Virus record (IMG/VR): IMGVR_UViG_3300045988_088194
Strand: one strand, 5' to 3'
Length of the DNA: 64,000 nt
DNA from: a virus
Positions 3,556 through 44,300 of this stretch are shown here, piece by piece; position 1 is the first letter of the stretch; each line of letters begins with the position of its first letter. The position numbers and the translations under genes were made by a program. The notes beneath the pieces are model-generated. The model did not search any database, was not told the origin of the DNA, and was given only the letters and a program-made list of their open reading frames with translations.

Positions 3556-4965
3556 ATGTCTAAGTTGAATCCAACCATTAAGCCAACATCTAAATTTACA
3601 GATGAAAGACTTGCTGGAGGTAGTGGTGCTCTTGCTGCTAAGCAGTCAAACATTGCTCTCCTTAAAAGACTCACCTTGGCTAATCTTCTTTGGGAAGATG
3701 CTGCCTATTGTGATGGCAAGAAGATTGCTGAAGAGATTGAAAGGCTCATACCTCTGTGTAGTGCAGAAGATGTATATACTGTTGCTTTGGCAGCAAGAAC
3801 TCTACAGAAACTCAGGCACACACCTTTGTTTCTGGCATCTGAAATGTGCAAATACCCTGAACACAGGCTATTTGTAAGAGACTTACTGCCAAAGATTATA
3901 ACAAGGGCAGATATGCTGACTGACTTCCTCTCTATATACTGGAAAGAAGAAAAGAAGCCACTGGCTAATCAGGCAAAGAAAGGACTTGCAGCAGCATTTC
4001 ATAACTTCAATGCTTATAAGTTTGCAAAGTATGACAGAGATGCTGCAATAAAACTCAGAGATGTAATGTTTCTTGTTCACCCAAGACCTTGTGATGAAAA
4101 GGAAGCAGAACTCTTCAAGATGATTGCTTCAAGAACTCTTCCTGTACCTGAAACTTGGGAAACAATGCTCTCTGCTGGTAAAGATAAAAAAGAAACCTGG
4201 ACTAAACTTATCACTGAAGATAAGATTGGAGGTTTAGCTTTCTTGAGAAATCTTAAAAACATGAGGGAAGCTGGTGTAGACAAGAAAGTAATAAAATATG
4301 GCTTTGAAAGTCTTAAGGCTTCAATGCTGTTGCCTATGAATTTCTTGCAAGCAGCCAGAATGAATCCTGAGTTTGAGAGGGATATAGAAGATGCTATGAT
4401 AACTTCATGGTCCAATCTTCCTAAAATCCCTGGTAGGACTCTGTTCATACTTGATGCTTCTGGTTCTATGGAGTGGGCTGAAATCTCAAAAAAGTCCAAA
4501 CTCACAAGGTTTGATGCTGCAAAGGCTATGGCTATGCTTGCTGCAAACCAGTGTGAAGACTTTGAGTTGGTGGTAACTGCTGGTGATGACTATGCCAGAA
4601 AGCATAAATCAGAAGTAATCAAATATCCTTCAAAGGGATTCAACCTTCTAAAGCAGATAGATGAAGCAAAGAAGAGGGTTGGAGGTGGAGGAATCTTCAC
4701 AAGACAATGTCTTGAGTGGTCAAGAGAACAGTTTACTGGAGAGTTTGACAGAATAATCATATTCTCAGACTCACAGGACTGTGACTACCCTGAGAAGAGA
4801 GTTCCAAAGCCTTTTGGAAAACACAACTACATCTGTGATGTATCATCTGAACTGCATGGTGTGAACTATAGGGGTGCTTGGGATGCTGAAATAAGTGGCT
4901 TCTCAGAGCATTTCCTAACTTTCATAGCAGCATATGAAGGTATTGAGAATACTTTTAATGAATGA
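3556..4965 (+). CDS. TROVE (Ro60/Rsr-like) domain protein with C-terminal vWA domain
   Basis: N-terminal AGGSGA...LFLASE...ITRADMLTDF...AYKFAKYDRDAAIKLRDVMFLVHPRP matches the TROVE pattern (..yqlaKY...lRDvlrl.HPkP). The C-terminus has a vWA MIDAS motif, LFILDASGSM, then VVTAGDD and IIIFSDSQD. Confidence 0.75.
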   Translation: MSKLNPTIKPTSKFTDERLAGGSGALAAKQSNIALLKRLTLANLLWEDAAYCDGKKIAEEIERLIPLCSAEDVYTVALAARTLQKLRHTPLFLASEMCKYPEHRLFVRDLLPKIITRADMLTDFLSIYWKEEKKPLANQAKKGLAAAFHNFNAYKFAKYDRDAAIKLRDVMFLVHPRPCDEKEAELFKMIASRTLPVPETWETMLSAGKDKKETWTKLITEDKIGGLAFLRNLKNMREAGVDKKVIKYGFESLKASMLLPMNFLQAARMNPEFERDIEDAMITSWSNLPKIPGRTLFILDASGSMEWAEISKKSKLTRFDAAKAMAMLAANQCEDFELVVTAGDDYARKHKSEVIKYPSKGFNLLKQIDEAKKRVGGGGIFTRQCLEWSREQFTGEFDRIIIFSDSQDCDYPEKRVPKPFGKHNYICDVSSELHGVNYRGAWDAEISGFSEHFLTFIAAYEGIENTFNE

Positions 4966-6917: not shown

Positions 6918-7002
6918 GCAGGGATGGCAGAATGGATTATGCACCAGTCTTCTAAACTGGGTTCTGAATGGAACAATGTGAGTTCGAGTCTCACTCCCTG
7001 TA
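6918..7002 (+). tRNA. type-II (long variable arm) tRNA with anticodon TCT; CCA encoded at 7003-7005
   Basis: - Acceptor: GCAGGGA/TCCCTGT (G1-U72).
- D stem: 3 bp, GCA/TGC.
- Anticodon arm: CCAGT-CTTCTAA-ACTGG.
- Variable arm: 17 nt, GTTC-TGAATG-GAAC-AAT.
- T arm: GTGAG-TTCGAGT-CTCAC.
- Discriminator: A73. Confidence 0.7.
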
Positions 7003-7069: not shown

Positions 7070-7143
7070 ACTCACATAGCTCAACTGGTCAGAGCAGGAC
7101 TCTTATACAGTCAAGGTTGGGGGTTCAAGTCCCTCTGTGAGTA
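7070..7143 (+). tRNA. tRNA-Ile (anticodon TAT)
   Basis: Acceptor ACTCACA/TGTGAGT, D arm GCTC-AACTGGTCA-GAGC, anticodon arm GGACT-CTTATAC-AGTCA (one G-A mismatch), T arm GGGGG-TTCAAGT-CCCTC. Confidence 0.85.
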
Positions 7144-7321: not shown

Positions 7322-7458
7322 GCATTACATAGTGCGGGGTAGAGTTACTTCAGATTAGATAAATGGTTATATCATAAGATTGTGGTTCTTAAATTTGTTG
7401 GTTCGAGTCCAGCATCTGGCTATAAACACTCTATCAATTATTCTTGTAATGCTTTTTT
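7322..7458 (+). ncRNA. long stem structure (permuted R-X-L element, copy 2) enclosing the tRNA-His-like module
   Basis: Outer stem GCATTAC (7322-7328) / GTAATGC (7446-7452) followed by TTTTTT. Inner stem GGTAGAGT (7338-7345) / ACTCTATC (7428-7435). ACTTC lies at 7347-7351 and TATAAAC at 7421-7427. Confidence 0.5.
7349..7421 (+). tRNA. tRNA-His-like (anticodon GTG), atypical acceptor end
   Basis: D arm GATA-AATGGTTA-TATC, anticodon arm TAAGA-TTGTGGT-TCTTA (perfect) and T arm GTTGG-TTCGAGT-CCAGC. The acceptor TTCAGAT/ATCTGGC has a T1-C72 mismatch and a T2-G71 wobble. There is no G-1/C73. Confidence 0.65.
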
Positions 7459-8377: not shown

Positions 8378-8785
8378 GGGGGTGTTTTGGTTTTGATTAC
8401 ACTCTATTTGGTAGTACCTTATGCAGTAGATGGGCAGTCTACTATAAAAGAGCCCAAAACAATTAAATGCTAACAAAGTTAGAAAATCAGTTAGAAGCCT
8501 TGTAGATTATATTAAATCTGCTATGCAGGCACCAGCAATTTCAGCTTATGCTGTTGCTGCCTAACAAAAGGCTTTAGTATTTGAGCCTTAATCAAGTACT
8601 TGGTGGAAGATGGGTGGATACCCAAATATGACTGCATGGCCTTGTAATTAGCAGAGGAAGAAGGAGTCAAGGGACGGTTTAATGGGACAGATTTCCATCT
8701 ATAGTAATAATCTGTCATCCTAAGCATATAAATAAAGGTATTATTGAAGGTTTGTAAGACACAGGTTCGAGTCCTGTCACCTCCA
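8378..8785 (+). ncRNA. ssrA: tmRNA (transfer-messenger RNA)
   Basis: - 5' end: GGGGGTGTTTTGGTTTTGA.
- 3' end: ACAGG-TTCGAGT-CCTGT-CACCTCC-A.
- Together these form a tRNA-Ala-like acceptor with G3-U70.
- CCTAAGCATATA box near the 3' domain.
- Internal tag frame: GCT ATG CAG GCA CCA GCA ATT TCA GCT TAT GCT GTT GCT GCC TAA (8520-8564), ending ..AYAVAA. Confidence 0.85.
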
Positions 8786-8794
8786 CTAATAAAT

Positions 8795-9026: not shown

Positions 9027-9410
9027 ATGATAGAGTATAAAGTTATAACTTGGAACTTCAGTACTGACAGAGTAGAGCATTATGATATAATGCCTTATCT
9101 GTACAGAAGACTTGAAGAGAAAAGAAAGAGGAAGCAGATAGCATTGAAAGACCTCACTTTGGAAAGGTTGAAGGAGTTCATTGATACTGAATCAAAGTAT
9201 CAGTTCTGGGCAAGATGCCAGTATGAAGTGATACTTTCTTCATGGCCTCCAAGAGAGAATGGACATAAGCATAAGATGGATGTATATGAACAGATTCATA
9301 TGAATCTTGACAATATAGCCAAACTTATGTATGATGACCTTCAGAAAGGAAAGTCTGCAAGAGCAACTAAGACTAGCAAGCACATAAGAGTTAAAACTTT
9401 AGATAGTTAA
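9027..9410 (+). CDS. hypothetical protein
   Basis: ORF. No motif recognised. Confidence 0.55.
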   Translation: MIEYKVITWNFSTDRVEHYDIMPYLYRRLEEKRKRKQIALKDLTLERLKEFIDTESKYQFWARCQYEVILSSWPPRENGHKHKMDVYEQIHMNLDNIAKLMYDDLQKGKSARATKTSKHIRVKTLDS

Positions 9411-9781
9411 TGAGCAGTCAGCCAAAAATTCTTCTCTCTATACAAGGTATAGAGGGAGGAACCCTAAGACCCATTGGGAAAAAGAGGGTCAATTGGTCCA
9501 TAACCAAAAAGGATTTGGACCCAAAATATCATGGTAAAGATGCATTTAAGCCAATCAGGAAAGGTCATATGGACATTCCTGAGTTTGAGAGTGTATCTTG
9601 CCAGCAGAGCATTAAACTCACACAGGATGCCTATGACTATATGACATCTTCTGAACAGCCTTACTGGTTCAAAGGTCCTTGGAAACTTATGACCAAGAAA
9701 CAGAGACTTGAGGTTCATCTTCAGAGGATATGTGATGATAGGGGAGGCACAAGTTACACCTATTCAATCCTTGAAGATTAA
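9410..9781 (+). CDS. hypothetical protein
   Basis: ORF with a start/stop overlap (TAATG). No motif recognised. Confidence 0.55.
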   Translation: MSSQPKILLSIQGIEGGTLRPIGKKRVNWSITKKDLDPKYHGKDAFKPIRKGHMDIPEFESVSCQQSIKLTQDAYDYMTSSEQPYWFKGPWKLMTKKQRLEVHLQRICDDRGGTSYTYSILED

Positions 9782-11148: not shown

Positions 11149-12306
11149 ATGGAAATAAAGATTGTATTGGGGCTTCTCTTTGGAGATGAAGGTAAGGGTA
11201 ACACAGTTCAGTGGCTCTGCAAGAAAGCCTTGGAAGAAGGTAAAAGACCTTGTGTAGTGCGTTTTTCAGGAGGTCCTCAGGCAGGACATACTGTAAGGCA
11301 TAATGGTATTACACATGTATGTTCTTCCTATGGCTCTGGTGTTCTTCTTGGAGTTCCTACACTGTATGTAGGAGGTCTTATTGACCCTCTATGTATATGG
11401 AATGAGAAGAAATCATTAGAAGAGAAAGGAGTGACGGTACCTCCTATCTATATAGGTGGAGAGGTTCCCCTGATAACTCCTTATGATGTAGCAGACCAAC
11501 TTGAGTGGTCTAAAGACCACCCTAACAGAACTTGTGGAAAGGGAGTAATGTCTGCTGTCTTGAGACAGAAAACCCGTCTAAGAGATAGATGTGCAGAGGC
11601 AGCAGACTTTTCTTCAAAGTCTTTTATTGAATATAAGTTAGAGCATATAAGAAAATTCTATGCTGAAGAAGGAATAACTGCTGACAAAGAGGTTGTCAAA
11701 GATTGGACAAAGGCAGGGTTGAACCTATGTAAGGACTTCTTCAAGTACAATATAGAGGATTTTGATGTTCTTATCTTTGAGGGAACTCAAGGACTTCTGT
11801 TAGATTCTGAATGTGGATTCTATCCTTATGTAACTTCAACTAAGGTAGGGCTCAATGGTGTCCCTAAAGAGTATCTTAAAGGTGCTGAAATATACCTTGT
11901 AACAAGGACTTATCTTACAAGACATGGAGAGATGGGACCACTTGAGAGGCAGTGGTTTGAGGGGAGAGAGAAGGAAGTACCTACTGATAAGTTAGAGACT
12001 AATGTCTTCAATGAACATCAGGGAGAGTTCCTTACTGCAAAGTATTATCCAGAACCTTACAAATATGCTGTACAAAGGCACTGTCTTGACAACATGCAGA
12101 AGAGGTATAACCTCACGATGAATCTTGTAGTTACTCATACTGATGTAGACTATTCTGAAGCTGGTGTATGTTTCCCTAAAGGAGACTGCTCTTTCTTTAT
12201 AAATAGTATATCAGGAACTCTTAAAGAGTTTCTTGTTCTACAGAACATTTATACCTCAGATAATCCTAACTCAAACTTTGAACTGTATGACACAAGAATT
12301 AACTGA
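11149..12306 (+). CDS. adenylosuccinate synthetase family protein (PurA/PurZ-like)
   Basis: N-terminal P-loop LLFGDEGKGNTVQW and the RFSGGPQAGHT motif are PurA-family signatures. At 385 aa it is shorter than typical bacterial PurA. Confidence 0.75.
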   Translation: MEIKIVLGLLFGDEGKGNTVQWLCKKALEEGKRPCVVRFSGGPQAGHTVRHNGITHVCSSYGSGVLLGVPTLYVGGLIDPLCIWNEKKSLEEKGVTVPPIYIGGEVPLITPYDVADQLEWSKDHPNRTCGKGVMSAVLRQKTRLRDRCAEAADFSSKSFIEYKLEHIRKFYAEEGITADKEVVKDWTKAGLNLCKDFFKYNIEDFDVLIFEGTQGLLLDSECGFYPYVTSTKVGLNGVPKEYLKGAEIYLVTRTYLTRHGEMGPLERQWFEGREKEVPTDKLETNVFNEHQGEFLTAKYYPEPYKYAVQRHCLDNMQKRYNLTMNLVVTHTDVDYSEAGVCFPKGDCSFFINSISGTLKEFLVLQNIYTSDNPNSNFELYDTRIN

Positions 12307-18455: not shown

Positions 18456-19118
18456 ATGAGTAGAAAAGTTACTGTGCTTGTAGAGAGCACACAGAGCAAA
18501 GTTGTGTTTGAGTCAAATGCTACCACCCTTGGTGAGCTTAAGAATGAACTGAGAGAGAGACAGGTAAGGTATGACTCAGATTGTGTATTCAAGGAGGCTG
18601 CTTCAAAGACCATCCTTACATCTGATGAGTCCATCCTTCCTTCTAACATTCCTTGGAAGGGTCAGGTAACTAATGACCTTGTGTTCATGGTTACTGCACC
18701 TCAGAAGAAAATCAGGTCTGGTGCTATGGACAGGAAGGAAGCCTATACAAGAGTTAAGGAGCTTGGTCTTCAGGGGAAGATTCAGGAACATGAGGGAAAG
18801 AACTTCACTCAGTGTTCAACTGCTATTCTTATCTCCTATATAGAGGATGAGAAGAAAAAGGCAGTCAAGAAGACTCCTAAACATACTCCTGCTCCTATAG
18901 CAAAGGAGAAAGTAGTTAAAGCAGATGCCTACACTATGCCAGCATCAGGAAAAGAAATGGTGTCTAATCTTAGAAACCTTCTTGATGAGATGGTATCTAA
19001 GGGAGTTCTCATGCAGCATGATGCTAATAACATCTGGGGTGTTGCCAATGGTCAGCCTGCTCTTCCTGTAGAAAGGGAGCAGTCCTATGATGAACTTGCT
19101 GAACAGTTTAACTTCTAA
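18456..19118 (+). CDS. hypothetical protein with N-terminal ubiquitin-like (beta-grasp) pattern
   Basis: The first ~88 aa (KVTVLVES..SKVVFES..TLGELKNELRERQ..LVFMVTAPQKKIRSG) mimic the ubiquitin strand/helix order and end in R-S-G. A 130-aa extension follows. Confidence 0.35.
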   Translation: MSRKVTVLVESTQSKVVFESNATTLGELKNELRERQVRYDSDCVFKEAASKTILTSDESILPSNIPWKGQVTNDLVFMVTAPQKKIRSGAMDRKEAYTRVKELGLQGKIQEHEGKNFTQCSTAILISYIEDEKKKAVKKTPKHTPAPIAKEKVVKADAYTMPASGKEMVSNLRNLLDEMVSKGVLMQHDANNIWGVANGQPALPVEREQSYDELAEQFNF

Positions 19119-19122
19119 TAAT

Positions 19123-19171
19123 GAGGGATAAGGGTCAGGATGAACTTCCTCTCCCTTATCCCCTTTTTTTA
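19123..19171 (+). terminator. rho-independent terminator
   Basis: GAGGGATAAGGG-loop-CCCTTATCCCC followed by TTTTTTT. Confidence 0.7.
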
Positions 19172-19176
19172 TAGGG

Positions 19177-20352
19177 ATGAATATGACAGATGAACAGAAA
19201 AAAGAATGGGAAAATCTGTATGACAGCCTGATGGAGAAACCAAGAAGAATCCTTGAAATATTCAGTGATTATTTTGGAGAAGATAAAGTGGATATGCAAG
19301 GATTCCGCACTAAGGAGGACTTCTGTAAAAATAAATCATTAGGGAAGGGTAATACAGATGCTATATTACTCCCAAGTGGTATATTTATACTTGTATGGTT
19401 TCCTCAAGTGAGAGTCACTAATGAGTATAACAGGTCTGTAGATATACAGGACCTTTATGCTAAAGTGAAGATTGATACAGAGGGACAACTCATAGGAAAG
19501 TTCTATCTCAATAGAGCTACTTATCCATTAAGTCATATGAGGGCTGGATATATGCATTCCCATATTCCAGGAATAAATACCCGTGACTTCTCAGACTTTC
19601 TTACACCTTGTACTGGAAGTGGACCCATCAATGCTACTATTGGAGGTCTTAACAGGGAGTTTGATGAAGATATGTGGCAGTTATTCTGTAGTGAACTTGA
19701 AGACTTTACTCAAGTAGAGTCAGTTGTAGGGGTTCCTTATAGAAGACTTGAGAATATAGGTGCCAGCCAGTCTTGTAGTGTGACACAGAAGTTCTTTTAT
19801 GTAGTCAGAGGATTTTATGGAAAGGTAGCAAGACCTCCATATGAATCAAGGAGTGTAGACCTTGGAATCATACCAGATTTTACAAGATACCTACTTAAGA
19901 ATGTCTCTCTTCCTATGGAATACTCAAATGGAACATACTGTCTTGGAATGTCTTATTATGATGCTACCATCTTGATTAGTAATAAGTTCATAGAATGGTT
20001 CAATCTTGAAGACAATCCATATAGGAGATTGTATGATTTTCAGTATTTGAAGAACAGGAGAATCCTTGGAGAGTATATAGTAGTTGATGGTAAAATCTAT
20101 ACTATTGGGGATGCTGAAAGTATCAATAGTTATAGGGACTATGAGGGTAAATTTGTATGTAAATTCAAAGGAAAAGAAATTAGATTACATATAGATAATG
20201 GTCTTTCCTCTGAACAGTATCCAGCTACCCTATTGGAAGAAAATGTTTTAAAGGATATAGTATCAGCTATCTGTAAAGTTGTAAATTTAAGATATGGAAG
20301 AAAAGAAGGAGAAGAAGAGTCTGAGCTTGATAGACAGACATTCTATGTATAA
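19177..20352 (+). CDS. hypothetical protein, possible E2/UBC-like fold
   Basis: A helix, then four predicted strands, then MHSHIPGI...(15 aa)...TPCTGSG. This resembles the HPN-flap plus catalytic Cys layout of E2 enzymes. Weak evidence. Confidence 0.3.
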   Translation: MNMTDEQKKEWENLYDSLMEKPRRILEIFSDYFGEDKVDMQGFRTKEDFCKNKSLGKGNTDAILLPSGIFILVWFPQVRVTNEYNRSVDIQDLYAKVKIDTEGQLIGKFYLNRATYPLSHMRAGYMHSHIPGINTRDFSDFLTPCTGSGPINATIGGLNREFDEDMWQLFCSELEDFTQVESVVGVPYRRLENIGASQSCSVTQKFFYVVRGFYGKVARPPYESRSVDLGIIPDFTRYLLKNVSLPMEYSNGTYCLGMSYYDATILISNKFIEWFNLEDNPYRRLYDFQYLKNRRILGEYIVVDGKIYTIGDAESINSYRDYEGKFVCKFKGKEIRLHIDNGLSSEQYPATLLEENVLKDIVSAICKVVNLRYGRKEGEEESELDRQTFYV

Positions 20353-21439
20353 ACTTATAATACCTGATTCAGTTCAGAGAAAGATAAGGGAGTGGTGTTA
20401 TCATTTCCCTACCAAAGAGTGGTCTGGAACACTGTTCTATACAGTAGAGGGTTCTTTTGAGGATGGTTCTTTGGTTATTACCTGTAAGGATATTTATGTA
20501 TCTGACATAGGTTCTGCTACCTATACAGAGTTTGACCATAGTGCTGATATTGTTACTTATCAGGCAATGAATGACCTGCTTGACTGCTATACGGGACTTA
20601 TCCACTCACATAACCAAATGGCAACATTCTTCAGTGGAACAGATAGAAACACTCTTATAGAGGAAGGTATGGATATGCCTCATTTCCTCTCTCTTATAGT
20701 GAATAATGCAGGTGTATATACTGCCAAGATTACCAGAAGGGTGAGTCTTCAGACCTCTAAGATAACCTATCCTACCTTTGGTGGAGAAAGTAAGTCTGAG
20801 GAAGTGGAATCTACTGTCAATGAATATCTTGAGGCATTTCCTCTTGAGATAGATGTACAGGAAGATACATCTATCAGGGATGAGGTTGCTCAGAGAATCA
20901 AAGAGATAGAAGCAGAGAAGACCGCTGTAAGAAGAACTAACTTTCTTTCTTATACCAAGAAGGAAGATGCACCCTTTAAAAGAGAAGAGGAAGTATCATT
21001 TACTAAGGAGTTCCCCTCACAGAGAACACCAGTACAGCCAACATTGTTCCCTGCTGACAGAATATCCCCTTCAGAAACAGATGGGAGTTGGGTCAATATT
21101 GAAGTCCCTCAAGAGTTGGCTCAGAAACTACTTGTACAGTTAGTAACTGGCTCTATCACAACTGGTTATAGTGACAAGTTTGATATAGAGAAGTGGTGTT
21201 CATCTATGATGGAGAAGGCTTTCCTCAGAAGGTTCCCTAACCCTCAGGACCTTGAGAACTGGCTTGACCTCTATACAGAGTTCCTTACATGGTACACTTG
21301 CTGGAAGGAAGTTGAAGATGAGGATTGTGATGTGATAGCCCAGGCTGTGGCAGCTAAATTGCTTAGTATGTGTGAGCAATTACCTGATAACAAGATACTT
21401 GATGTTATCAAGTCTAAACTTGAGGAGATAATGGCATGA
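20345..21439 (+). CDS. JAB/MPN (JAMM) metalloprotease domain protein
   Basis: EWSGTLFY...HSHNQMATFFSGTD matches the JAMM motif E...HxH-x7-S-xx-D. Track ORF trimmed to ATG 20345, which overlaps the upstream stop. Confidence 0.75.
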   Translation: MYKLIIPDSVQRKIREWCYHFPTKEWSGTLFYTVEGSFEDGSLVITCKDIYVSDIGSATYTEFDHSADIVTYQAMNDLLDCYTGLIHSHNQMATFFSGTDRNTLIEEGMDMPHFLSLIVNNAGVYTAKITRRVSLQTSKITYPTFGGESKSEEVESTVNEYLEAFPLEIDVQEDTSIRDEVAQRIKEIEAEKTAVRRTNFLSYTKKEDAPFKREEEVSFTKEFPSQRTPVQPTLFPADRISPSETDGSWVNIEVPQELAQKLLVQLVTGSITTGYSDKFDIEKWCSSMMEKAFLRRFPNPQDLENWLDLYTEFLTWYTCWKEVEDEDCDVIAQAVAAKLLSMCEQLPDNKILDVIKSKLEEIMA

Positions 21440-22395
21440 CACAGAATATACAACAGGCTGTACAACAGGATATAGCACTTAGACTGACTGAGGCAATTAA
21501 TGGTCTTGTAGACCAGGTCAGTGTTGAGCATACTGGGGCTGCTGTTTCAGAGAATACTTCTGAAGAGATAGAAGAGCAGGCTGCATATCCGGAGTATCCA
21601 AGTATAAGCAGTGAAACTACTGTTCCTGAGCAGGCTCATGATAGGATTCCTACCAACTCTGAGACTATTACCATTGACATGAGCACTTCAAGGTTTAGTG
21701 GTGCAGTGTGGTATAATAAAGTGCAGGAGAAGACAATCACTCTTGCAGGTTTGGGTGGTATAGGTTCTTATGTGGCTTTCCTTCTCTCAAGAATGAAGCC
21801 TAATCACATAAGACTCTATGATGATGATACTGTAGAATTGGCAAATATGTCAGGGCAGTTCTACAGTGTTCTTGACATCAACAAGACTAAGGCTCAAGCC
21901 ATGACTGACATGATGCACAATTACAGTAATTATTGTTCCATAACCTCTGTCAATGAGAGGTTCACAACAGATTCCCCTGCTACTGACATCATGATTTGTG
22001 GATTTGACAATATGACTGCCAGAAGGATATTCTACAGTGTATGGAAACACCATGTGATGAGTATACCTGAAGAACTAAGAAAGCATTGCCTGTTCATAGA
22101 TGGAAGGCTTGCAGCAGAGGAGTTTCAGGTTCTGTGTATACAGGGTGGTGACAGTTATAATATGAAGAGGTATGAGAAAGACTGGCTGTTCTCAGATGAT
22201 GAGGCTGATGCCACACTCTGTAGTTATAAGCAGACAACCTTCATGGCTAATATGATTGGCTCTATCATGACTAATCTCTTTGTGAACTTTTGTGCCAATG
22301 ACCTTGAAGGTGATGAAAAGCCTATGATAGATAGGAGTCTTCCATTCCTTACATCATATGATGCTTCTTTGATGATGTTTACTACGGAGGCTTGA
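21436..22395 (+). CDS. ThiF/MoeB/E1-like adenylyltransferase
   Basis: Rossmann motif TLAGLGGIGSYVAFLL followed by IRLYDDDTVELANMSGQFY, matching the E1 pattern GxGGxG...D.D.V..sNl.RQ. Confidence 0.75.
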   Translation: MTQNIQQAVQQDIALRLTEAINGLVDQVSVEHTGAAVSENTSEEIEEQAAYPEYPSISSETTVPEQAHDRIPTNSETITIDMSTSRFSGAVWYNKVQEKTITLAGLGGIGSYVAFLLSRMKPNHIRLYDDDTVELANMSGQFYSVLDINKTKAQAMTDMMHNYSNYCSITSVNERFTTDSPATDIMICGFDNMTARRIFYSVWKHHVMSIPEELRKHCLFIDGRLAAEEFQVLCIQGGDSYNMKRYEKDWLFSDDEADATLCSYKQTTFMANMIGSIMTNLFVNFCANDLEGDEKPMIDRSLPFLTSYDASLMMFTTEA

Positions 22396-23159
22396 TTATG
22401 GTTGCAACAATTTACAATGACCTCATTACTCATCCCTTCAATACCGTGTATGCAAGTACAGGTATGTTTATTGCATATTCCTCCTGTCTTGAAGAGCATG
22501 ATATACTGAATGGATACATATGTACAGATGTGAATCATACTGGTTCATTTGAAGTACCTATGGTTATGCTTCCTTATCTTGAGACCATCTTGATACAGCC
22601 AGAGATAAAGTGGAAGCAGATTGCTATGCCTCTATATTATGGAAATACTGCTGTAAAGAACACTTCTGATGCTATCATAAAACATTTCTTCAGAAACATT
22701 CAAGCAGGTTGTGAAAGACTCTCTAAGATTGTGACAAAGAAAGGAGAGGTTTATTATGGGGGAAATGGGATGATATTTGACCAACATATGAAACCTCTTG
22801 TCCTGTATACTGCTACTGTTACAGGTATGACTCCTGTAACTGTTCCTCACAGGCCAGTAAGAATGAAGACAACCATTTCTGCCCTTAATGTGAGAGTGTC
22901 CCCTCAGGTGCTTCTTAAGGATGATATGCTCAAGAAGAATATAATCTCCAAGGTTATACCTTCACTTGTATCAAGGAGTTTTACAAGTATAAGAGGTGTA
23001 GTGTTTGATAAGCCTATAACTCCTAAGATTATCATTGAGGACCTTTCAGAGTGGATTAAAAGACCTGCAAAAGTAGGCAGTCCTCAGACCTTCAAGGAGG
23101 ATATGCAGAAGTTCTTGTCAAGAGAGGATATTATTCAGGATATAGTAGAATGCCTATGA
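22392..23159 (+). CDS. hypothetical protein
   Basis: ORF overlapping the E1-like stop (ATGA). No motif recognised. Confidence 0.55.
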   Translation: MIMVATIYNDLITHPFNTVYASTGMFIAYSSCLEEHDILNGYICTDVNHTGSFEVPMVMLPYLETILIQPEIKWKQIAMPLYYGNTAVKNTSDAIIKHFFRNIQAGCERLSKIVTKKGEVYYGGNGMIFDQHMKPLVLYTATVTGMTPVTVPHRPVRMKTTISALNVRVSPQVLLKDDMLKKNIISKVIPSLVSRSFTSIRGVVFDKPITPKIIIEDLSEWIKRPAKVGSPQTFKEDMQKFLSREDIIQDIVECL

Positions 23160-23794
23160 CTTGGAGTGGCATAGTATCAACAGATAGTATGGCTATTCCT
23201 TGGTCTAAGGTCATGAAATCTGGAAGACCTTTTTGTCCTGATAAGAATGACATTTTCAAGGCATTCTCATACTGTAGTCCTGATGACTGCAAGGTGGTAT
23301 TTCTTGGACAAGACCCATATCCTCAGAAGGGTGTTGCAACTGGTATACTGTTTGCAAATAAGTCAGAAACTTTGCCTGAACAACTATCTCCTTCATTGAA
23401 GGTTATCAAAAATTCTTTGTTTGAAGATTTGCATATTTCAGAAAAAGACTTTAACTTTGACCCTTCATTAATATCCTGGGCAGAACAGGGGATACTTATG
23501 ATTAACTCTGCACTTACTGTAGAGGTGAACAAGATAGGTTCTCATGTTATGATATGGAGACCTTTCATATCAAAACTTCTGAGGAATCTGTCTCTGTACA
23601 ATCCAGATATACTGTTTGTTTTGTTTGGTTCACAAGCAGGCACATTCAGACCTTATATCAACAAGGAGAGTACTGTTCTTGAGATACCTCACCCTGCATA
23701 TAGTGCAAGAACTGGAGAAAAGTTTCCTCTTATCTTCAATGCAATAAATGAAATTCTTGCAAAGAAAGGTAAGAAGAAGATACATTGGATTTAA
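23150..23794 (+). CDS. uracil-DNA glycosylase-like protein
   Basis: VVFLGQDPYPQKGVATGILF (UNG motif GQDPY) and IPHPAYSA (HPSPLS-like). Confidence 0.7.
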   Translation: MPMTWSGIVSTDSMAIPWSKVMKSGRPFCPDKNDIFKAFSYCSPDDCKVVFLGQDPYPQKGVATGILFANKSETLPEQLSPSLKVIKNSLFEDLHISEKDFNFDPSLISWAEQGILMINSALTVEVNKIGSHVMIWRPFISKLLRNLSLYNPDILFVLFGSQAGTFRPYINKESTVLEIPHPAYSARTGEKFPLIFNAINEILAKKGKKKIHWI

Positions 23795-24778: not shown

Positions 24779-25047
24779 GTACACCCGTCCAAAGAATCAA
24801 ACAGTTGCTTTCCTGTGTACCAGAGAAAGACATTCCTTATGCAAATAAGTTCATTAAGGAGAGAGATTTTGAAGCCCTTAGAGATTTAGTCAAGTCTGAT
24901 ATACAGATACTTCTTAAGAAGAAGGATGAGTCCCTTGAGGAGCAGATAGACAATCTGAGACTTCTTAAAACTGAGATAGACTCCTATCTGCTTTTGTTAG
25001 GTCTTGAAGATGATGATGAAATTGAAACAGATTTTTGGGAAGGATGA
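24775..25047 (+). CDS. hypothetical protein
   Basis: ORF. No motif recognised. Confidence 0.5.
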   Translation: MSTPVQRIKQLLSCVPEKDIPYANKFIKERDFEALRDLVKSDIQILLKKKDESLEEQIDNLRLLKTEIDSYLLLLGLEDDDEIETDFWEG

Positions 25048-25671
25048 TAATGAAATCATTGAAAGACATATCATGGAATGTAACAGAAGACCAGTATAGG
25101 GCTGATTCAGCATTGTCTTATTCTACTCTTTCAAGATTCAATAGAGAGGGGTTTGACAATCTTGTTCATCTGTTTGATAAGACAGAAAGTCCTTCACTTC
25201 TTTTTGGTAGTGTAGTTGATACTCTACTTACAGGAACCAAGGAGGAATTTGATGAGAGGTTTTTCATAGCAGATTTTCCTGAACTGCCTGATAAACAGAA
25301 GGAAGTAGTCACTGTACTGTTTAATGCTGTGGGAGGTAGAGTCTCTTGGAAGGACTTGCCAGATGGACCACTTATTACTGCTATAGAAGCAGTTAATTAT
25401 CAACCTAACTGGAGAGATGATACCAGAGTGAAGGTCATTAGGGAGGTAGGTGGGGAATATTATGACTTACTTACACTTGCTGATGGAAAGACAGTGGTAT
25501 CACAGAAATTGTATCAGGATGCTCTGGATTGTGTAGAGATATTGAGAAAGTCTGAAAGCACCAAGTGGTATTTTGAAGTAGACAATCCTTTCAACAAGAC
25601 TATTGAAAGACTGTATCAATTGAAGTTCAGAGGAAGTTATGAGGGCATAGACCTCAGATGTATGGCGGATT
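25035..25671 (+). CDS. PD-(D/E)XK (RecB/Cas4-like) exonuclease, exon 1
   Basis: The ORF ends ..GIDLRCMAD at an in-frame TAA created by the intron. The nuclease core motif continues in exon 2. Confidence 0.7.
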
Positions 25672-25711
25672 AACAAAAAATAATAATTATTTATAAATAT
25701 TTTCTTAACTT

Positions 25712-25743
25712 TATTGTATTTTTAATCAATTATTATTACCTTT
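25712..25743 (+). promoter_or_regulatory. Bacteroidota-type promoter inside the intron, upstream of the homing endonuclease gene
   Basis: ATTG at 25712-25715, a 20-nt spacer, then TACCTTTG at 25736-25743, 22 nt before ATG 25765. Confidence 0.45.
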
Positions 25744-25764
25744 GCCCATATAACTATATGTAAT

Positions 25765-26550
25765 ATGAGTAAAAAATTAGGAATAAAAATTGATGAAATT
25801 GTTACTTTATATAATCAAGGTAACACTCCAGCACAAATAGCAGAGAGATACGGATGTTGTACTTCTAATATAACAAGAAGGCTTAAAAAAGTAGGAATAG
25901 AGTTTAAAAGAGACTACTTAAAAACTCGTCACAATAGAAATGGTAGACACAAAATAGATACAGATTTCTTTAAATGTATAAATACAGAAGAGAAAGCTTA
26001 TTTTTTAGGTATTATGTATTCTGATGGAAGTGTATCTGATAATCAATTCTATTTAAAACTTAAAGATGAGGATGTTGTAGTTAAATTTAAAAAGGCTTTA
26101 AAGTGTGATTATCCAATAATACATAATGAAAGTCCTTATTATAACTATATTTTACAAGTAAGTAGTAAAGAAATGTGTAGAGATTTAATAAATTTAGGTT
26201 GCTATAAAAATAAAACTAGAATTATTAAATTTCCAGATATTGACCCTTCTTTATTTAAGCATTTTATTAGAGGATTCTTTGATGGTGATGGTTGTGTAAG
26301 AGTTGGTAAAACTAAAGGAACTTGTATGTTTGATATAACATCTGCTTCTTACACTTTTATAATGCAGTTAAAAACCATTTTAACACCTATAGCTTATCAT
26401 ATAGGTATATCTAAAGAATCTAAATATGATGTATGGCATCTTAGGTGTGGAGGAAAGCAAGTACAACAAATTTTAGATTGGTTATATGAAGGTAGCACAG
26501 TCTATATGCAAAGAAAATATTTTAAATATCAATTATTAAGTTCGCTTTAA
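25765..26550 (+). CDS. LAGLIDADG homing endonuclease (double-motif) with N-terminal HTH
   Basis: Two LAGLIDADG motifs, YFLGIMYSDGSV and FIRGFFDGDGCV. N-terminal HTH-like TPAQIAERYGCCTSNITRRL. Confidence 0.85.
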   Translation: MSKKLGIKIDEIVTLYNQGNTPAQIAERYGCCTSNITRRLKKVGIEFKRDYLKTRHNRNGRHKIDTDFFKCINTEEKAYFLGIMYSDGSVSDNQFYLKLKDEDVVVKFKKALKCDYPIIHNESPYYNYILQVSSKEMCRDLINLGCYKNKTRIIKFPDIDPSLFKHFIRGFFDGDGCVRVGKTKGTCMFDITSASYTFIMQLKTILTPIAYHIGISKESKYDVWHLRCGGKQVQQILDWLYEGSTVYMQRKYFKYQLLSSL

Positions 26551-26760
26551 ATTGGGTTAAAAAGGGGAAGCCTTAGTTGGTAATCCTTTGCCAAGCTATA
26601 ATTTAAATGATTATAGAAGGCCAAACGACTAATAGGTGAAACTACTGTATAGTAGAATATAATCCTAACACGAAATCCCAATACTAGAAATAGTAAAGAT
26701 ATAGTCTGAACTACAGATATAAAATGAAACTGTAGAATAAGAGGATAAACAGCCTCTTAG

Positions 26761-27182
26761 ATAACAAAATGTTAATTATAGTAGACCATGAGAAGAAGAT
26801 AGTATATCCTTGTGACCTTAAGACTTCTTTCAAACCTGAATGGAGATTCTACAAGTCCTTCATGGAATGGGGATATTGGATTCAAGCCCAACTGTACTGG
26901 TATCTTATCAGGCAGACTATGGATAAAGATGAATACTTCAAGGACTTCAAACTGGCAGATTACAGGTTTATTGTCATAAGTAACAGGACAAGAAAACCTC
27001 TTGTGTGGGAATTTCCACAGACTCAGGCTATTACTGACCTTAAACTTGGGGAACATAAACTCAGGAACTGGAGAGGTATAGCAAAAGAACTTTATACTTA
27101 CCTTATCAAGGACTATGAAGTTCCAGTGGATATTAACATGAATTTAATCAACAATATAAGCAAGTGGTTGGAGAATGAATGA
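26761..27182 (+). CDS. PD-(D/E)XK (RecB/Cas4-like) exonuclease, exon 2
   Basis: IIVDHEKKIVYPCDLKTS...WIQAQLYWY matches D-x(n)-(D/E)xK plus the QxxxY motif. It is in frame with exon 1 when T25671 is joined to A26761 (..MAD-Y-NKMLIIVD..). Confidence 0.7.
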
Positions 27183-41300: not shown

Positions 41301-44300
41301 AAGACCTTGGTCAATGGGGAACAGCAGCCTCTGCCATAGGTACAACAGCAGACAGTGTCACAAGAGACTTCTTCAAAGGTGAGCTGAAAGATGAATATCC
41401 AAACTTGTCAGATAAGGACCTTTCCTTTCTCAAGCATGACTTGAAGAGCCTTAGGAACTTCTTTGACAAGAAGTTTGGAAAGGACAAATATACAGTAGTG
41501 ACTGAAGAGTTCCCAATAGCCTCAAAGTATACATACACTGACAAGGATGGAAAACTTAAGGGAGGTGTAATGGCAGGAACTATGGATATGCTTATCTATG
41601 ATAATGAAGGTAACTTCTATATCTATGATATGAAGACTTCAAGAAGTGGTCTCAATGAGAACAAGGTTGCTGGATATGCAAAGCAGCTGACACTCTATAA
41701 GGCTATTCTTGAGGCCAATTATCCAGAGCTGAGAGGCAAGATAAAGGAGCTTAAACTTATTCAGTTTAGGGTAGGTTATCCACAACCTGGAGCTGACTTC
41801 ATCTATTCAGCAACTGATGGTCAGTTATATCTTAATAATGTTCCTATTCAGGAGACTGAAGACTACTATGCACCTCACTTGGATTTTACTGGAAACAGTC
41901 TTGACAATCAGGTGCTTGTTCCAGTAGAACCTGTAAGTATGGATATTCACTTTGAAGGTATGACTGAAGATGAGGTAGAATCAATGAGGGAGGAAACAAG
42001 AGAGCCAGAGAGTACTGAGTTCTCACAGAATGAAGTAGATAGCCAGAGAGATAACCTCTATGGAAACCCTCTGCTTTCAGCTACAGAGAGAACATTCCTT
42101 GCTAACAATGTAATGAGTCTTACTTCCTTTATTGTTACTCACTTACAGACAAATCCTGAGGCTAATCAGTTCTATTTTGGAGACCAATTCAGTAGGCTCA
42201 ACTTTACTAAGATGTCAAGAGAAGACATCATAAGTACTGTTGGGGTAACAAAGATATTTGAGTATATAAAGGAAAGATGGTATAATCCTGATAACAGGAC
42301 TGACATTGATGATTTTGATACTCTTGACAAGTTACAGATAGCCTATGACAACTGGGCAGCCCTTGTGAAGTCTGCCTATGCAAAACTTATAACTCTTGAA
42401 GGTGTTACAGTAGTTGCTGCAAGACCTGATGAAATAAGTAGAGAGGATATTGAGACCTCTTTTCAAGAACAGATAGATGCTGGTGAACTTGAAGAGAAAG
42501 AAAGGGAGTATTGGCAGCTTGGTATAAGAAACATATCAGCAAGGTCAAGTCTTAGTGGTGATATAAGAAGGTCATTTGAAAGGCTCTTTGCCATAGACTC
42601 CAATGGAAATCCTATAAAGGACAAGTTTGGTTTCAATTTTGATACTTTTGTAGATTCTGGTGTTGCTGTAAATAGTATCCTTGAATGGACCAGAACTGCT
42701 ACAACTGTAGAAGAGATGGAGGAGATACTTGATGGAATGAAGGACTCTTATCCTTGGCTTAACTCTATCCTCAATAAGATAAAGGAAGAACCTTTCAGGT
42801 CTCAATTCTTTCAGAATTTCAGAAAGGACTTTACACAGTATAGTATTGTAACTGTGGAAAGGGATGAGAAAGGAAATAAGGTATATCAGACTCAAATAAT
42901 TAACACTAAGGGAGCATCACAGTCTGTACTTGATGAGATTACTACCTATTATAATTCAGGACTTATGCAGAACATCATAATCACTGCTGATGGTATTGAA
43001 GGTAAGGGTAGGGTTAATGTCAAGAATGTTGAGGCTCTTAAGGCTGAGAAGGACAAAATAGTATCTGACCTTAAGGGTGCATTCACTGCTGTGAGAAAGG
43101 AAGTATATAATAACACTCTCAAGAACTCTGTACCTAAGATTACAAAACTCCTAAATGAGTTAGGAATAAGAGTAGATGCCAAGACAGTCTCTAATACCAT
43201 AGTTGGTAAAGAAAGACCTAAGGACATTAATAACTCCCCAGTAATGAAACTTCTGAGTGAAATGTCCTATATGTTTGATGCCTTGCTATCAAAGAAGGAC
43301 TCTACCTCATATAATCCTCTTCTTAAAGGGGAGGAGAAGAACATCTATGGAAATTATAAATCTATAGTTGGACTTATGAGCAAGTATATTCAGGACAGTA
43401 TTGAGTCATCATCCTATGAGAATGGCAAGATGCACTACTCTTTTGTAACTCCTTCTTATATGGGAAAACTTATTCTCAATCTGAAAGATGCCATTGGCAA
43501 TCCAAGCAAGTTCAATTCATTTATGGAAGAGAATTATGGGTCATATAGATGGTTCAGGGAAGAGGATGGAACTTGGAATAATGCATGGCTTGAGTTGATT
43601 TCTGAAAGTAAGGATGCAAGACAAGGCTTGGAACATAAAGTTCAGTTGTCATTTGATGGAACTCCTTACACTGATTTGAGTGAGTTGGGATATACTCTAT
43701 CTCTTATGAGTGAGTACTTCTATGATAAGGGAAGTAGAGGAAAAGGTCCTCAGTGGGCATGGTACAGAGTTCCTATGCTTTCAAATAAACCTTCTTCCGA
43801 ATTTATAAGGTTCAAGAGATACTCAGGTTCTGAATATAAGAGAAGAATCAAGAGGGGACTCAAAATGGTTCTCAATCAGGAAGTTCTTAGGTTCAGAGCT
43901 GTACTTGAAAGAAGTGTGAATGCAAACATTGAACCTATCTCAAACTTTGATATAAGTTCTAAAGTCCTGAAGAAGAATCCTCAGATTGAGGCTAAGATGA
44001 GAGCTGGAGAACCTCTTACTCATGATGACCTTGTGAAGAATGGAAAACTTATAACTGCTGCAAGTGGAGCTTCCTTTAAGTTCCTTGAAGCTTTCAATCA
44101 AAATATAGTTGAAGGTGATGAGCTTGGAATGATGCTTATAGACAAGATAAATGGTGTCAGTGTAAATGAGGATTCTTTTGACAAGTTAGTCAATCAGAAC
44201 CTTGATTCTTACATGGACATTATAGTAAGCAAGGAGATTTCACAGTGGGAGAAGATTGGTCTATTTGATACAGAGGAAGTCAGAAGGGGCGAAGATGTTG

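Follow-up and report, generated by a model that had tools for sequence, protein, structure and literature searches.

A conserved crAss-like phage gene cassette with an E1-type adenylation domain and a JAMM peptidase: a possible activation system for a ubiquitin-like modifier

The ubiquitin-like (Ubl) conjugation characterised so far in prokaryotes is of two kinds: defences that hosts direct against phages (CBASS Cap2/Cap3, Bil and Bub) and sulfur chemistry. The SAMP system of archaea and the TtuB system of Thermus take part in Ubl conjugation that works without an E2 and doubles as sulfur transfer, and the CysO-Mec+-MoeZ and QbsCDE systems combine a Gly-Gly terminus with a rhodanese or sulfurtransferase as partner and a specific biosynthetic enzyme. 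Among the defence systems, the BilC JAB peptidase pre-processes its Ubl and exposes a C-terminal Gly (PMC10557695), and in type I Bub (6E.1) a JAB peptidase cuts a BubAB Ubl-E2 fusion directly behind a conserved Gly (PMC11601596). The only earlier described phage pairing of a Ubl with a JAB protein is that of TAPI (Ubl) and gpK (JAB-NlpC/P60) in lambda and T1 (PMC1779556). Here we analysed four adjacent open reading frames (ORFs) at positions 18456-22395 of IMG/VR virus record IMGVR_UViG_3300045988_088194, a stretch of 64,000 nucleotides that we call the window. A preliminary description, made from the sequence alone, had proposed that these ORFs encode a complete conjugation set consisting of Ubl-like, E2-like, JAB and E1-like proteins. 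We tentatively read them as an E1- and JAMM-driven activation system for a ubiquitin-like modifier carried by a phage, and we hold this reading with slightly less than even confidence.

All four ORFs were present in the ORF list of the window, on the plus strand and exactly where they had been placed. Each has a relative in Bacteroides phage crAss001:

18456-19118, plus strand: ORF1, 220 aa, counterpart of crAss001 gp79
19177-20352, plus strand: ORF2, 391 aa, crAss001 gp78 family
20294-21439, plus strand: ORF3, 381 aa, crAss001 gp77 family
21436-22395, plus strand: ORF4, 319 aa, crAss001 gp76 family

The reading of ORF4 as a ThiF/E1-type adenylation protein, originally based on the motif GLGGIGS, was borne out. 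Pfam ThiF (PF00899) matched ORF4 with an E-value of 6.4e-19 (68.5 bits against a cutoff of 28.1), and its relatives in the PDB were Uba5, TcdA, ThiF, PaaA, Uba1 and MccB. The protein is organised as follows:

21436-22395, plus strand: ORF4, with a variable N-terminal tail (aa 1-84) and then one E1/ThiF-type adenylation domain
21748-21765, plus strand: codons of the GxGGxG motif
22219-22221, plus strand: codon of C262
Other key sites of ORF4: D191, and G140 in place of Arg

Its motifs read G105-L-G-G-I-G-S and D129-D-D-T-V-E-L-A-N-M-S-G-Q141. In relatives down to approximately 30% identity, R86-F87, GxGGxG, D129, N137, Q141, K152, D191-x-M-x-x-R196, D222-G-R224 and C262 never changed. The catalytic Asp, the conserved Lys and the N-terminal Arg were all present, with D191-N-M-x-x-R196, K152 and R86 invariant across 12 deep lineages; we take D191, K152 and R86 to correspond to MoeB D130, K86 and R14. 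At the sequence level, C262 is the single invariant Cys, located about 70 residues past D191 in the motif C-[ST]-x-K-[QA]-T. Alignment and library scans of the ORF4 family found neither a conserved CxxC zinc pair nor a rhodanese domain. Environmental relatives can be as short as 221-255 aa. Together, the profile matches and invariant sites identify ORF4 as a real E1/ThiF adenylation domain.

The JAMM protease motif reported for ORF3 was likewise confirmed, with this arrangement:

20294-21439, plus strand: ORF3, with an N-terminal JAMM/MPN+ domain at about aa 20-160 and about 220 poorly conserved C-terminal residues
20417-20419, plus strand: codon of catalytic E42
20603-20644, plus strand: codons of H104 through D117

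The residues of the motif, E42 and H104-S-H106-x7-S114-x2-D117, were invariant in 15 non-redundant relatives. Pfam Prok-JAB matched ORF3 at E = 1.2e-4 and 22.4 bits, under its cutoff of 25. All 13 matches of the ORF3 family profile in the PDB were JAMM/MPN+ proteins, of the deSAMPylase or deubiquitinase type, led by Pyrococcus furiosus JAMM1 (5lda, E = 0.004) and including CSN5 and Rpn11-like proteins. By its invariant motif, ORF3 is identified as a JAMM/MPN+ peptidase.

In a number of phage lineages, from aquatic sources and from Flavobacterium, the JAB gene is broken in two, namely at loci L097 (8010-10421), L106 (7607-9922) and L003 (Flavobacterium phage Fpv2, 6857-9149). In Fpv2, the break lies ahead of the S-G-T-D of the JAMM motif and an endonuclease gene stands between the halves. 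The halves in L097 are separated by a group I intron (RF00028, 79.6 bits, 9220-9477).

ORF1 had been proposed to begin with a Ubl-like domain ending in KKIRSG and followed by an extension that a JAB protease could remove. The terminal motif is present as described, and the protein divides accordingly:

18456-18722, plus strand: ORF1 residues 1-89, putative Ubl-like module ending K84-K-I-R-S88-G89
18717-18722, plus strand: codons of S88-G89
18723-19118, plus strand: ORF1 residues 90-220, lineage-variable C-terminal module

The pattern K-x-[IV]-x-S-G was kept in 78 of 79 unique ORF1 homologs. In distant members the Gly persisted and the Ser usually did, with A-G or L-G in a few. The sequence beyond the SG depends on lineage: some have a helical region with an acidic tail, others a tail rich in Lys, Ala and Pro, and others again a different domain or a small ORF of its own. 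In marine relatives, the stand-alone Ubl-like gene has a small ORF for an acidic helix behind it. The C-terminal module of ORF1 itself comprises helices at residues 93-137 (predicted local distance difference test score, pLDDT, of 73-84) and further helices at 165-197, joined by a linker rich in Lys, Pro and Ala, and closes with an acidic-aromatic tail (19068-19115, SYDELAEQFNF). This tail is of the type S-x-x-E-[IL]-x-x-[ML]-F-x-F; among homologs the pattern reads S-x-x-E-[IL]-[DN]-x-M-F-x-F, as in YSDDEIDDMF and SRSEINKMFDF. The acidic-aromatic tail of ORF1 homologs recalls protein-recruiting tails such as the C-terminus of the single-stranded DNA-binding protein (SSB).

Two further observations bear on the boundary at Gly89. 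First, a metagenome scan recovered stand-alone ORF1 homologs of 75-83 aa from marine and freshwater sources that stop 1-3 residues past the Gly. These end in ...KQMKSGLN, ...KVKSGK or ...KVKSGNKN, represent at least four independent environmental lineages, and are encoded directly before ORF2-like, JAB and E1 genes, in that order. Second, in a close relative (L163, 2478-3750) a homing-endonuclease gene of the HNH/NUMOD type lies directly after ...KKIKSG-KN-stop, cutting the ORF1 homolog at the domain boundary into ORFs of 91 and 167 aa. The same HNH arrangement is annotated in cr106_1 (MT774378, ~43382-43684). Rfam detected no intron around the insertion in L163, so the HNH gene looks like a free-standing endonuclease gene. 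Because homologs stand alone, extensions vary and the HNH gene inserts at the SG, residues 1-89 of ORF1 constitute an autonomous, ubiquitin-sized module bounded by the invariant Gly. The same lines of evidence argue for the proposal that the extension after the SG is removable. Moreover, the module was always encoded next to the JAMM and E1 genes.

Between ORF1 and ORF2 lies a further element:

19125-19170, plus strand: intrinsic-terminator-like hairpin between ORF1 and ORF2

Its GC-rich stem is formed by GGGAUAAGGG (19125-19134) pairing with CCCUUAUCCC (19153-19162), followed by U7 at 19164-19170 (dG -24.7 kcal/mol, z -2.6). A simple terminator scan missed the hairpin because its loop is 18 nt long. 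A hairpin and T-run occurred at the same site in nearly all lineages (L001-L086 and L097-L131) with unrelated stem sequences, which points to a conserved terminator or attenuator.

The association of the four genes extends well beyond the window. Two neighbouring genes complete the arrangement:

22392-23159, plus strand: ORF5, crAss001 gp75 family, translationally coupled to the ORF1-ORF4 set
23150-23794: uracil-DNA glycosylase (UDG), after ORF5

Genes overlap at the ORF3/ORF4, ORF4/ORF5 and ORF5/UDG junctions; specifically, the start of ORF5 overlaps the stop of ORF4 and its end overlaps the start of UDG. Upstream of the cassette are genes for a DnaB-like helicase, a Sak4-like ATPase and a Toprim primase, and downstream, beginning with UDG, are genes for a DUF1064 nuclease, NrdD, PolA, ThyX and others. 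The order in the window is that of crAss001 gp80 (primase), gp79, gp78, gp77, gp76, gp75 and gp74 (UDG). Because gene order is identical across gp80-gp74, the earlier placement of the cassette in the replication module of a crAss-like phage was correct on both counts, and the source is a Steigviridae-like crAss phage. Megablast returned no near-identical phage in GenBank.

Identical order was also observed in Bajarodcaudo virus, DAC15, Dulem virus 41 and cr111_1, and in Flavobacterium phage Fpv2 the order is kept apart from small rearrangements. Using tblastn, we found primase-ORF1-ORF2-ORF3-ORF4-(ORF5)-UDG in essentially every sufficiently long contig of 80 IMG/VR loci. The order ORF1-ORF2-JAB-E1 recurs in distant environmental contigs of marine and freshwater origin. 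Collectively, the habitats and hosts of the cassette include the human gut, rodent and lemur faeces, fish pathogens, the ocean and lakes. In searches of GenBank phages, the cassette turned up solely in Bacteroides phages related to crAss001, in uncultured crAss-like phages and in phages of Flavobacterium. Since the order recurs across IMG/VR, GenBank phage and distant environmental loci, the linkage of these genes exceeds chance, and the four genes form a conserved functional cassette as had been supposed. In GenBank, the E1 has so far been labelled "thiamine biosynthesis protein ThiF" and the JAB "metalloprotease", and the rest are hypothetical proteins.

These observations suggest how an E1- and JAMM-driven activation system might work. 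ORF1 would be made in excess as a precursor whose first 89 residues are the Ubl-like module ending in Ser88-Gly89; we propose that its level exceeds that of the enzymes owing to the conserved terminator or attenuator downstream. The JAMM peptidase ORF3 would cut after Gly89 and remove the C-terminal module, while in the relatives of 75-83 aa it would trim merely 1-3 residues. ORF3 probably also undoes the later modification. The single-domain E1, ORF4, would adenylate the exposed Gly carboxylate and probably then form a thioester on Cys262. The modifier would most likely go to a protein amino group, either directly from the E1, in the manner of the SAMP and TtuB systems that lack an E2, or via Cys145 of ORF2. 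If transfer proceeds via Cys145, ORF2 would be a functional analogue of an E2, not a homologue with the UBC fold. The fast-evolving ORF5 and, to a lesser extent, ORF2 may set target specificity, and targets could be phage replication proteins or host proteins.

Several results weigh against this reading. The AlphaFold2 (AF2) model of ORF1, built from a shallow alignment containing only sequences at least 89% identical, had a pLDDT of 52 overall and below 50 in the N-terminal domain. Within this domain the model placed strands at residues 5-10 and 15-20, a helix at 25-34 and strands at 45-47 and 76-79, all at pLDDT < 50. The resulting order of elements (b-b-a-b...b) fits a beta-grasp fold but is no proof of one. 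About 29 of the 50 top Foldseek matches of this low-confidence model were beta-grasp proteins, including the FAF1 UBL domain, FERM F1, SUMO, ferredoxin, protein G and Mth1743, with a best E-value of 0.04 and none at E ≤ 0.001. Because of the low model confidence, these matches are not statistically meaningful. No Ubl family in Pfam matched any of 12 ORF1 members at E ≤ 10, and a profile search of PDB sequences with ORF1 found no Ubl. Aligning the ORF1 N-terminal domain with ubiquitin/NEDD8/SUMO/ISG15 and ThiS/MoaD in hhalign, using hand-typed alignments, gave nothing significant (P = 0.1-0.4); a short aligned segment landed on the same helix region. Furthermore, the module terminates in Ser-Gly, not Gly-Gly.

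Other parts of the cassette raise doubts as well. The ATP-phosphate-binding Arg of the NxxRQ motif is missing from ORF4, which reads N137-M-S-G140-Q, with G140 aligned to the Arg of Uba5 "NMNR". Position 140 was Gly in 14 of 14 sequences in one set and in 10 of 12 in another, where it was otherwise Asn or Cys, and was never Arg. Canonical adenylation is doubtful because this Arg is absent across the E1 family. No UBC fold or E2 signature was detected in ORF2 by Foldseek against the PDB, HMM (hidden Markov model) libraries or profiles. The hairpin could tie ORF1 to the primase unit rather than to ORF2-5, and a full-text search of the literature returned no paper linking crAss-like phages or the cassette to ThiF, JAB or Ubl systems. 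Accounting for both sides, it is comparison of homologs, not fold, that supports ORF1 as a Ubl-like precursor. What stands of the original proposal is an autonomous module ending in SG, as attested by stand-alone homologs and the HNH junction, whereas no Ubl family match or confident fold model accompanies it.

The status of ORF2 determines whether the set contains an E2. The motif H127-S-H129-I-P followed after 15 residues by P-C145-T-G had led to ORF2 being tentatively called UBC-like, and these letters are indeed present. Conservation is concentrated in the following region:

~19513-19737, plus strand: codons of the ORF2 core invariant in all lineages, comprising R113, Y125, S128-H129, C145-x-G147 and E181-S182-x-x-G185-x-P187

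C145 is the only Cys invariant in all ORF2 lineages, including those of Fpv2 and marine relatives, and S128-H129 lies sixteen residues upstream. A single conserved Cys with an upstream His is necessary but not sufficient for membership among E2s. C171 and E173 were conserved just among closer relatives. The AF2 model of ORF2 (pLDDT 80, 23-sequence alignment) comprises an N-terminal domain with a long helix, a sheet with three 13-residue strands, the H127-S-H129...C145 loop and helices, followed by a second domain at residues 231-373. Searching the PDB with this model in Foldseek returned nothing at E ≤ 0.001 and no E2 in the best 50, and in BFVD it matched only uncharacterised homologs from crAss-like phages. 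No E2 family was found for ORF2 in Pfam (23 members), PADLOC (77 members), NCBIfam or PDB-sequence profiles, and hhalign against the canonical E2s UBE2D2/I/N/L3 was negative (P = 0.2-0.7). We therefore rejected ORF2 as a UBC/E2 member, given that Foldseek, HMM libraries, PDB profiles and hhalign were all negative.

Other identities considered for ORF2 fared no better. Foldseek themes (TnsB, EndoG, RAD52/Erf/Bet and GTP cyclohydrolase I) were noise, with E-values of 0.1-4 and TM-scores ≤ 0.2. A JAMM-like HxH...S..D reading was ruled out because its Ser and Asp positions vary. We also considered an E2 concealed in the ORF4 N-terminus, the ORF3 C-terminus or ORF5, and found no conserved Cys/His there. 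The ORF2 family is large (2847 clusters at 50% identity, E ≤ 1e-3). A scan of genome contigs for cellular homologs gave just 5 contigs of metagenome-assembled genomes (MAGs), three as long as crAss-like phage contigs (29-111 kb) and two short ones (1-4 kb), which are probably phage contigs binned into MAGs. All members found were thus on phage or phage-like contigs. Judging from its conserved residues, ORF2 appears enzyme-like and may act like an E2 by accepting the activated modifier. To call the set complete was an overstatement because ORF2 fails all E2 tests: the E1, the JAMM and, by comparison of homologs, a putative Ubl-like module are there, but no E2 can be demonstrated.

A more specific possibility, which we regard as doubtful, is that the cassette is a self-contained pathway for Ubl conjugation carried by Crassvirales-like phages of Bacteroidota in the gut, the ocean and freshwater. 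This would comprise an SG modifier of roughly 75-89 aa, its release by a JAMM peptidase, a minimal E1 without the Arg, and ORF2 (gp78) as a non-UBC Cys "E2" with a fold not seen before. The modifier would then mark replication proteins or host factors during infection.

The lack of a UBC E2 also favours an explanation in terms of sulfur chemistry, the main rival reading, though one that we think unlikely. Here, ORF4 would adenylate JAMM-processed ORF1(1-89), whose C-terminus would then become a thiocarboxylate, with ORF2, whose Cys, His, Glu and Ser core is invariant, as the sulfur-inserting enzyme. The acceptor could be a small molecule, nucleotide, tRNA or DNA base, with ThiS/ThiF, CysO-Mec+-MoeZ, QbsCDE and TtuB/TtuC as models. 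The best-scoring named HMMs for ORF4 were ThiF-type sulfur-carrier adenylyltransferases (PRK08644, 1e-17; thiF_fam2, 5e-15), and the cassette resides among nucleotide-metabolism and DNA genes. Known trios of Ubl, JAB and E1 without a UBC E2 are mostly sulfur carriers (Iyer et al. 2006, PMC1779556). However, the NCBIfam ThiF/MoeB equivalogs scored only 42-65 bits against curated cut-offs of 152-449 and covered residues ~92-202, that is, the generic Rossmann half, so ORF4 falls in no named E1 subfamily. ORF4 also lacks the CxxC pair and the rhodanese domain, leaving C262 as its sole invariant Cys. Moreover, scanning the cassette and about 20 neighbouring proteins revealed no cysteine desulfurase, rhodanese or PP-loop ATPase, and the fast evolution of ORF5 and, less so, ORF2 would be unusual for a biosynthetic enzyme.

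Direct comparison with these systems leads to a similar picture. SAMP/UbaA/JAMM1 and TtuB/TtuC resemble the cassette in having a small Ubl, putative in the phage, together with a single-domain ThiF-like E1, a JAMM and no UBC E2, and it was the JAMM1 of P. furiosus that proved to be the best PDB sequence relative of ORF3. Their modifiers, however, are ThiS/MoaD family members with a Gly-Gly end, whereas ORF1 ends in Ser-Gly and matches no Ubl HMM. The phage cassette also differs by always including the large ORF2, by being viral and by its position in a replication module. With CysO-Mec+-MoeZ and QbsCDE it shares a ThiF-like E1 and would share a Ubl from which a JAB removes a short extension (PMC1779556). 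In contrast, the Gly-Gly terminus, sulfurtransferase partner and biosynthetic enzyme of these systems were not found in the phage cassette or the neighbours scanned. The Ser-Gly terminus, the missing sulfurtransferase match and the sub-cutoff E1 likewise separate the cassette from the sulfur carriers as a group (ThiS/ThiF, MoaD/MoeB and CysO/MoeZ).

We next compared evolutionary rates using pairwise dN/dS (the ratio of nonsynonymous to synonymous substitution rates) between the window and three close relatives:

Primase: dN/dS 0.11-0.18
ORF1: dN/dS 0.23-0.29
UDG: dN/dS 0.28-0.33
ORF4: dN/dS 0.30-0.40
ORF3: dN/dS 0.37-0.41
ORF2: dN/dS 0.51-0.57
ORF5: dN/dS 0.71-1.12

All five cassette genes are maintained, and ORF2 and especially ORF5 are fast-evolving. 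ORF5 follows the E1 in most Steigviridae-like loci, was undetected in several lineages, and had no family match in Pfam, NCBIfam, PHROGs or PADLOC.

That ORF1 is more constrained than ORF2-5 and tracks the primase is compatible with the genes being unrelated neighbours, an explanation we consider very unlikely. ORF1 would then simply bind DNA or assist the replisome, having a helical module and an SSB-like acidic tail, and ORF3 and ORF4 would act elsewhere, for example on a peptide or protein C-terminus (like MccB or PaaA) or on tRNA (like TcdA). The conserved terminator does part ORF1 from ORF2-5, the ORF1 tail resembles protein-recruiting acidic tails, and the relatives of ORF4 in the PDB include TcdA, PaaA and MccB. 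Yet it is the Ubl-sized N-terminal module, not the C-terminal one, that is conserved in all lineages and exists alone upstream of ORF2-JAB-E1, and no other conserved Gly-terminal tail was seen among the cassette proteins.

The host defence systems provide the remaining points of comparison. Like Bil, the cassette has a modifier (here a candidate), a Cys-containing partner, a JAB and an E1. BilD, however, is a multidomain IAD-AAD-CYS E1 (PMC11601596), whereas ORF4 has one adenylation domain. BilB is a UBC-fold E2 and ORF2 is not, and Bil is a host defence whereas the cassette is phage-encoded. In PADLOC, the only match to Bil was a weak one of ORF4 to BilD (6e-7, 26.5 bits, Rossmann segment), with no matches to BilA, BilB or BilC. 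The cleavage of the BubAB fusion parallels the proposed processing of ORF1, and Bub is also a precedent for non-canonical catalytic residues. It differs in that the fusion partner is an E2, the JAB is fused to the E1, oxyesters are formed and a DUF6527 protease is involved; Pfam and profile scans found no Bub-type domains or fusions in the cassette. Type II CBASS shares an E1-type adenylation domain and a JAB, and the best PADLOC matches of ORF4 were to the E1 part of Cap2 (1.3e-12). Nevertheless, Cap2 has an E2 fused to its E1 and conjugates the C-terminus of the CD-NTase, whereas ORF4 has no fused E2, and no CD-NTase family matched the cassette ORFs or the neighbouring proteins scanned.

These resemblances raise the prospect that the cassette is directed at host immunity, which we judge to be quite improbable. 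In such a scenario, the JAMM and E1, together with ORF1 acting as a decoy or competing Ubl, would disturb Bil or CBASS Cap2/Cap3 by deconjugating host Ubl or CD-NTase adducts, or by titrating or mis-modifying their enzymes. In addition to the Cap2 and BilD matches of ORF4, ORF3 weakly matched the Cap3-type JAB model of PADLOC. A Bil-type operon is listed in B. thetaiotaomicron (Iyer et al., PMC1779556), and the dN/dS of ORF2 and ORF5 (0.5-1.1) is consistent with an arms race. The cassette also appears accessory, given its limited distribution among GenBank phages. However, its strict embedding in the replication module in the same order across diverse hosts and habitats fits a core phage process better, because the order is fixed across habitats while defences are sporadic. 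There is also no close similarity to BilA, BilB or BilC, and a pure anti-defence deubiquitinase would need no E1 and modifier of its own.

Finally, the cassette can be set beside the phage pair TAPI/gpK, with which it shares a Ubl-like domain (putative here) with a C-terminal Gly, an extra C-terminal domain and a JAB. TAPI/gpK, a tail-module pair that serves assembly, has no E1, whereas the cassette of the window includes one and lies among replication genes. Compared with the E1/JAB/Ubl systems described so far, the cassette is new in being phage-borne and located in a replication module, and in combining a candidate Ser-Gly modifier, a minimal E1 without the Arg and an obligatory partner of unknown fold.

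The window contains other features of interest. At 11149-12306 (plus strand) it encodes a PurA/PurZ-like adenylosuccinate synthetase homolog (Pfam Adenylsucc_synt, 1.4e-31) that is ~26-33% identical to PurA-like or "2-aminooxy adenylosuccinate synthetase" proteins from phages of mycobacteria, Vibrio and Rhizobium. The GenBank matches listed for this product included no phage of Bacteroides and no cultured crAss-like phage. The gene could indicate modification of purines or DNA bases, such as 2-aminoadenine. A full-length tmRNA (8378-8788, plus strand; Rfam RF00023, 82 bits, E = 4.5e-30) lies beside a tRNA cluster, with tRNAs at 1935-2008, 6918-7002, 7070-7143 and 7349-7421. Near this cluster and upstream of an AAA ATPase gene is a gene for a TROVE/Ro60-like protein with a vWA domain (3556-4965, plus strand; Pfam TROVE, 7.3e-14). 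An exonuclease-like gene at 25035-27182 (plus strand) seems interrupted, as a LAGLIDADG homing-endonuclease ORF (25765-26550; Pfam LAGLIDADG_3, 2.3e-10) stands between its two ORFs (25035-25673 and 26769-27182). Rfam called no intron in this region at the gathering threshold.

Rather than belonging to a host, the E1, the JAMM and the putative Gly-terminated modifier described here are carried by a phage, a member of one of the most abundant groups of human-gut viruses, which also has aquatic relatives. If the modifier is conjugated to proteins, the cassette would represent a Ubl pathway encoded by viruses, in which a transfer enzyme of a new type takes part. Should the modifier instead carry sulfur, the cassette would point to an unknown thio-modification made by these phages. 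Since crAss001, DAC15 and the Flavobacterium Fpv phages are cultured, the cassette is directly testable. Either way, it offers a testable biochemical hypothesis for five conserved "dark" genes.

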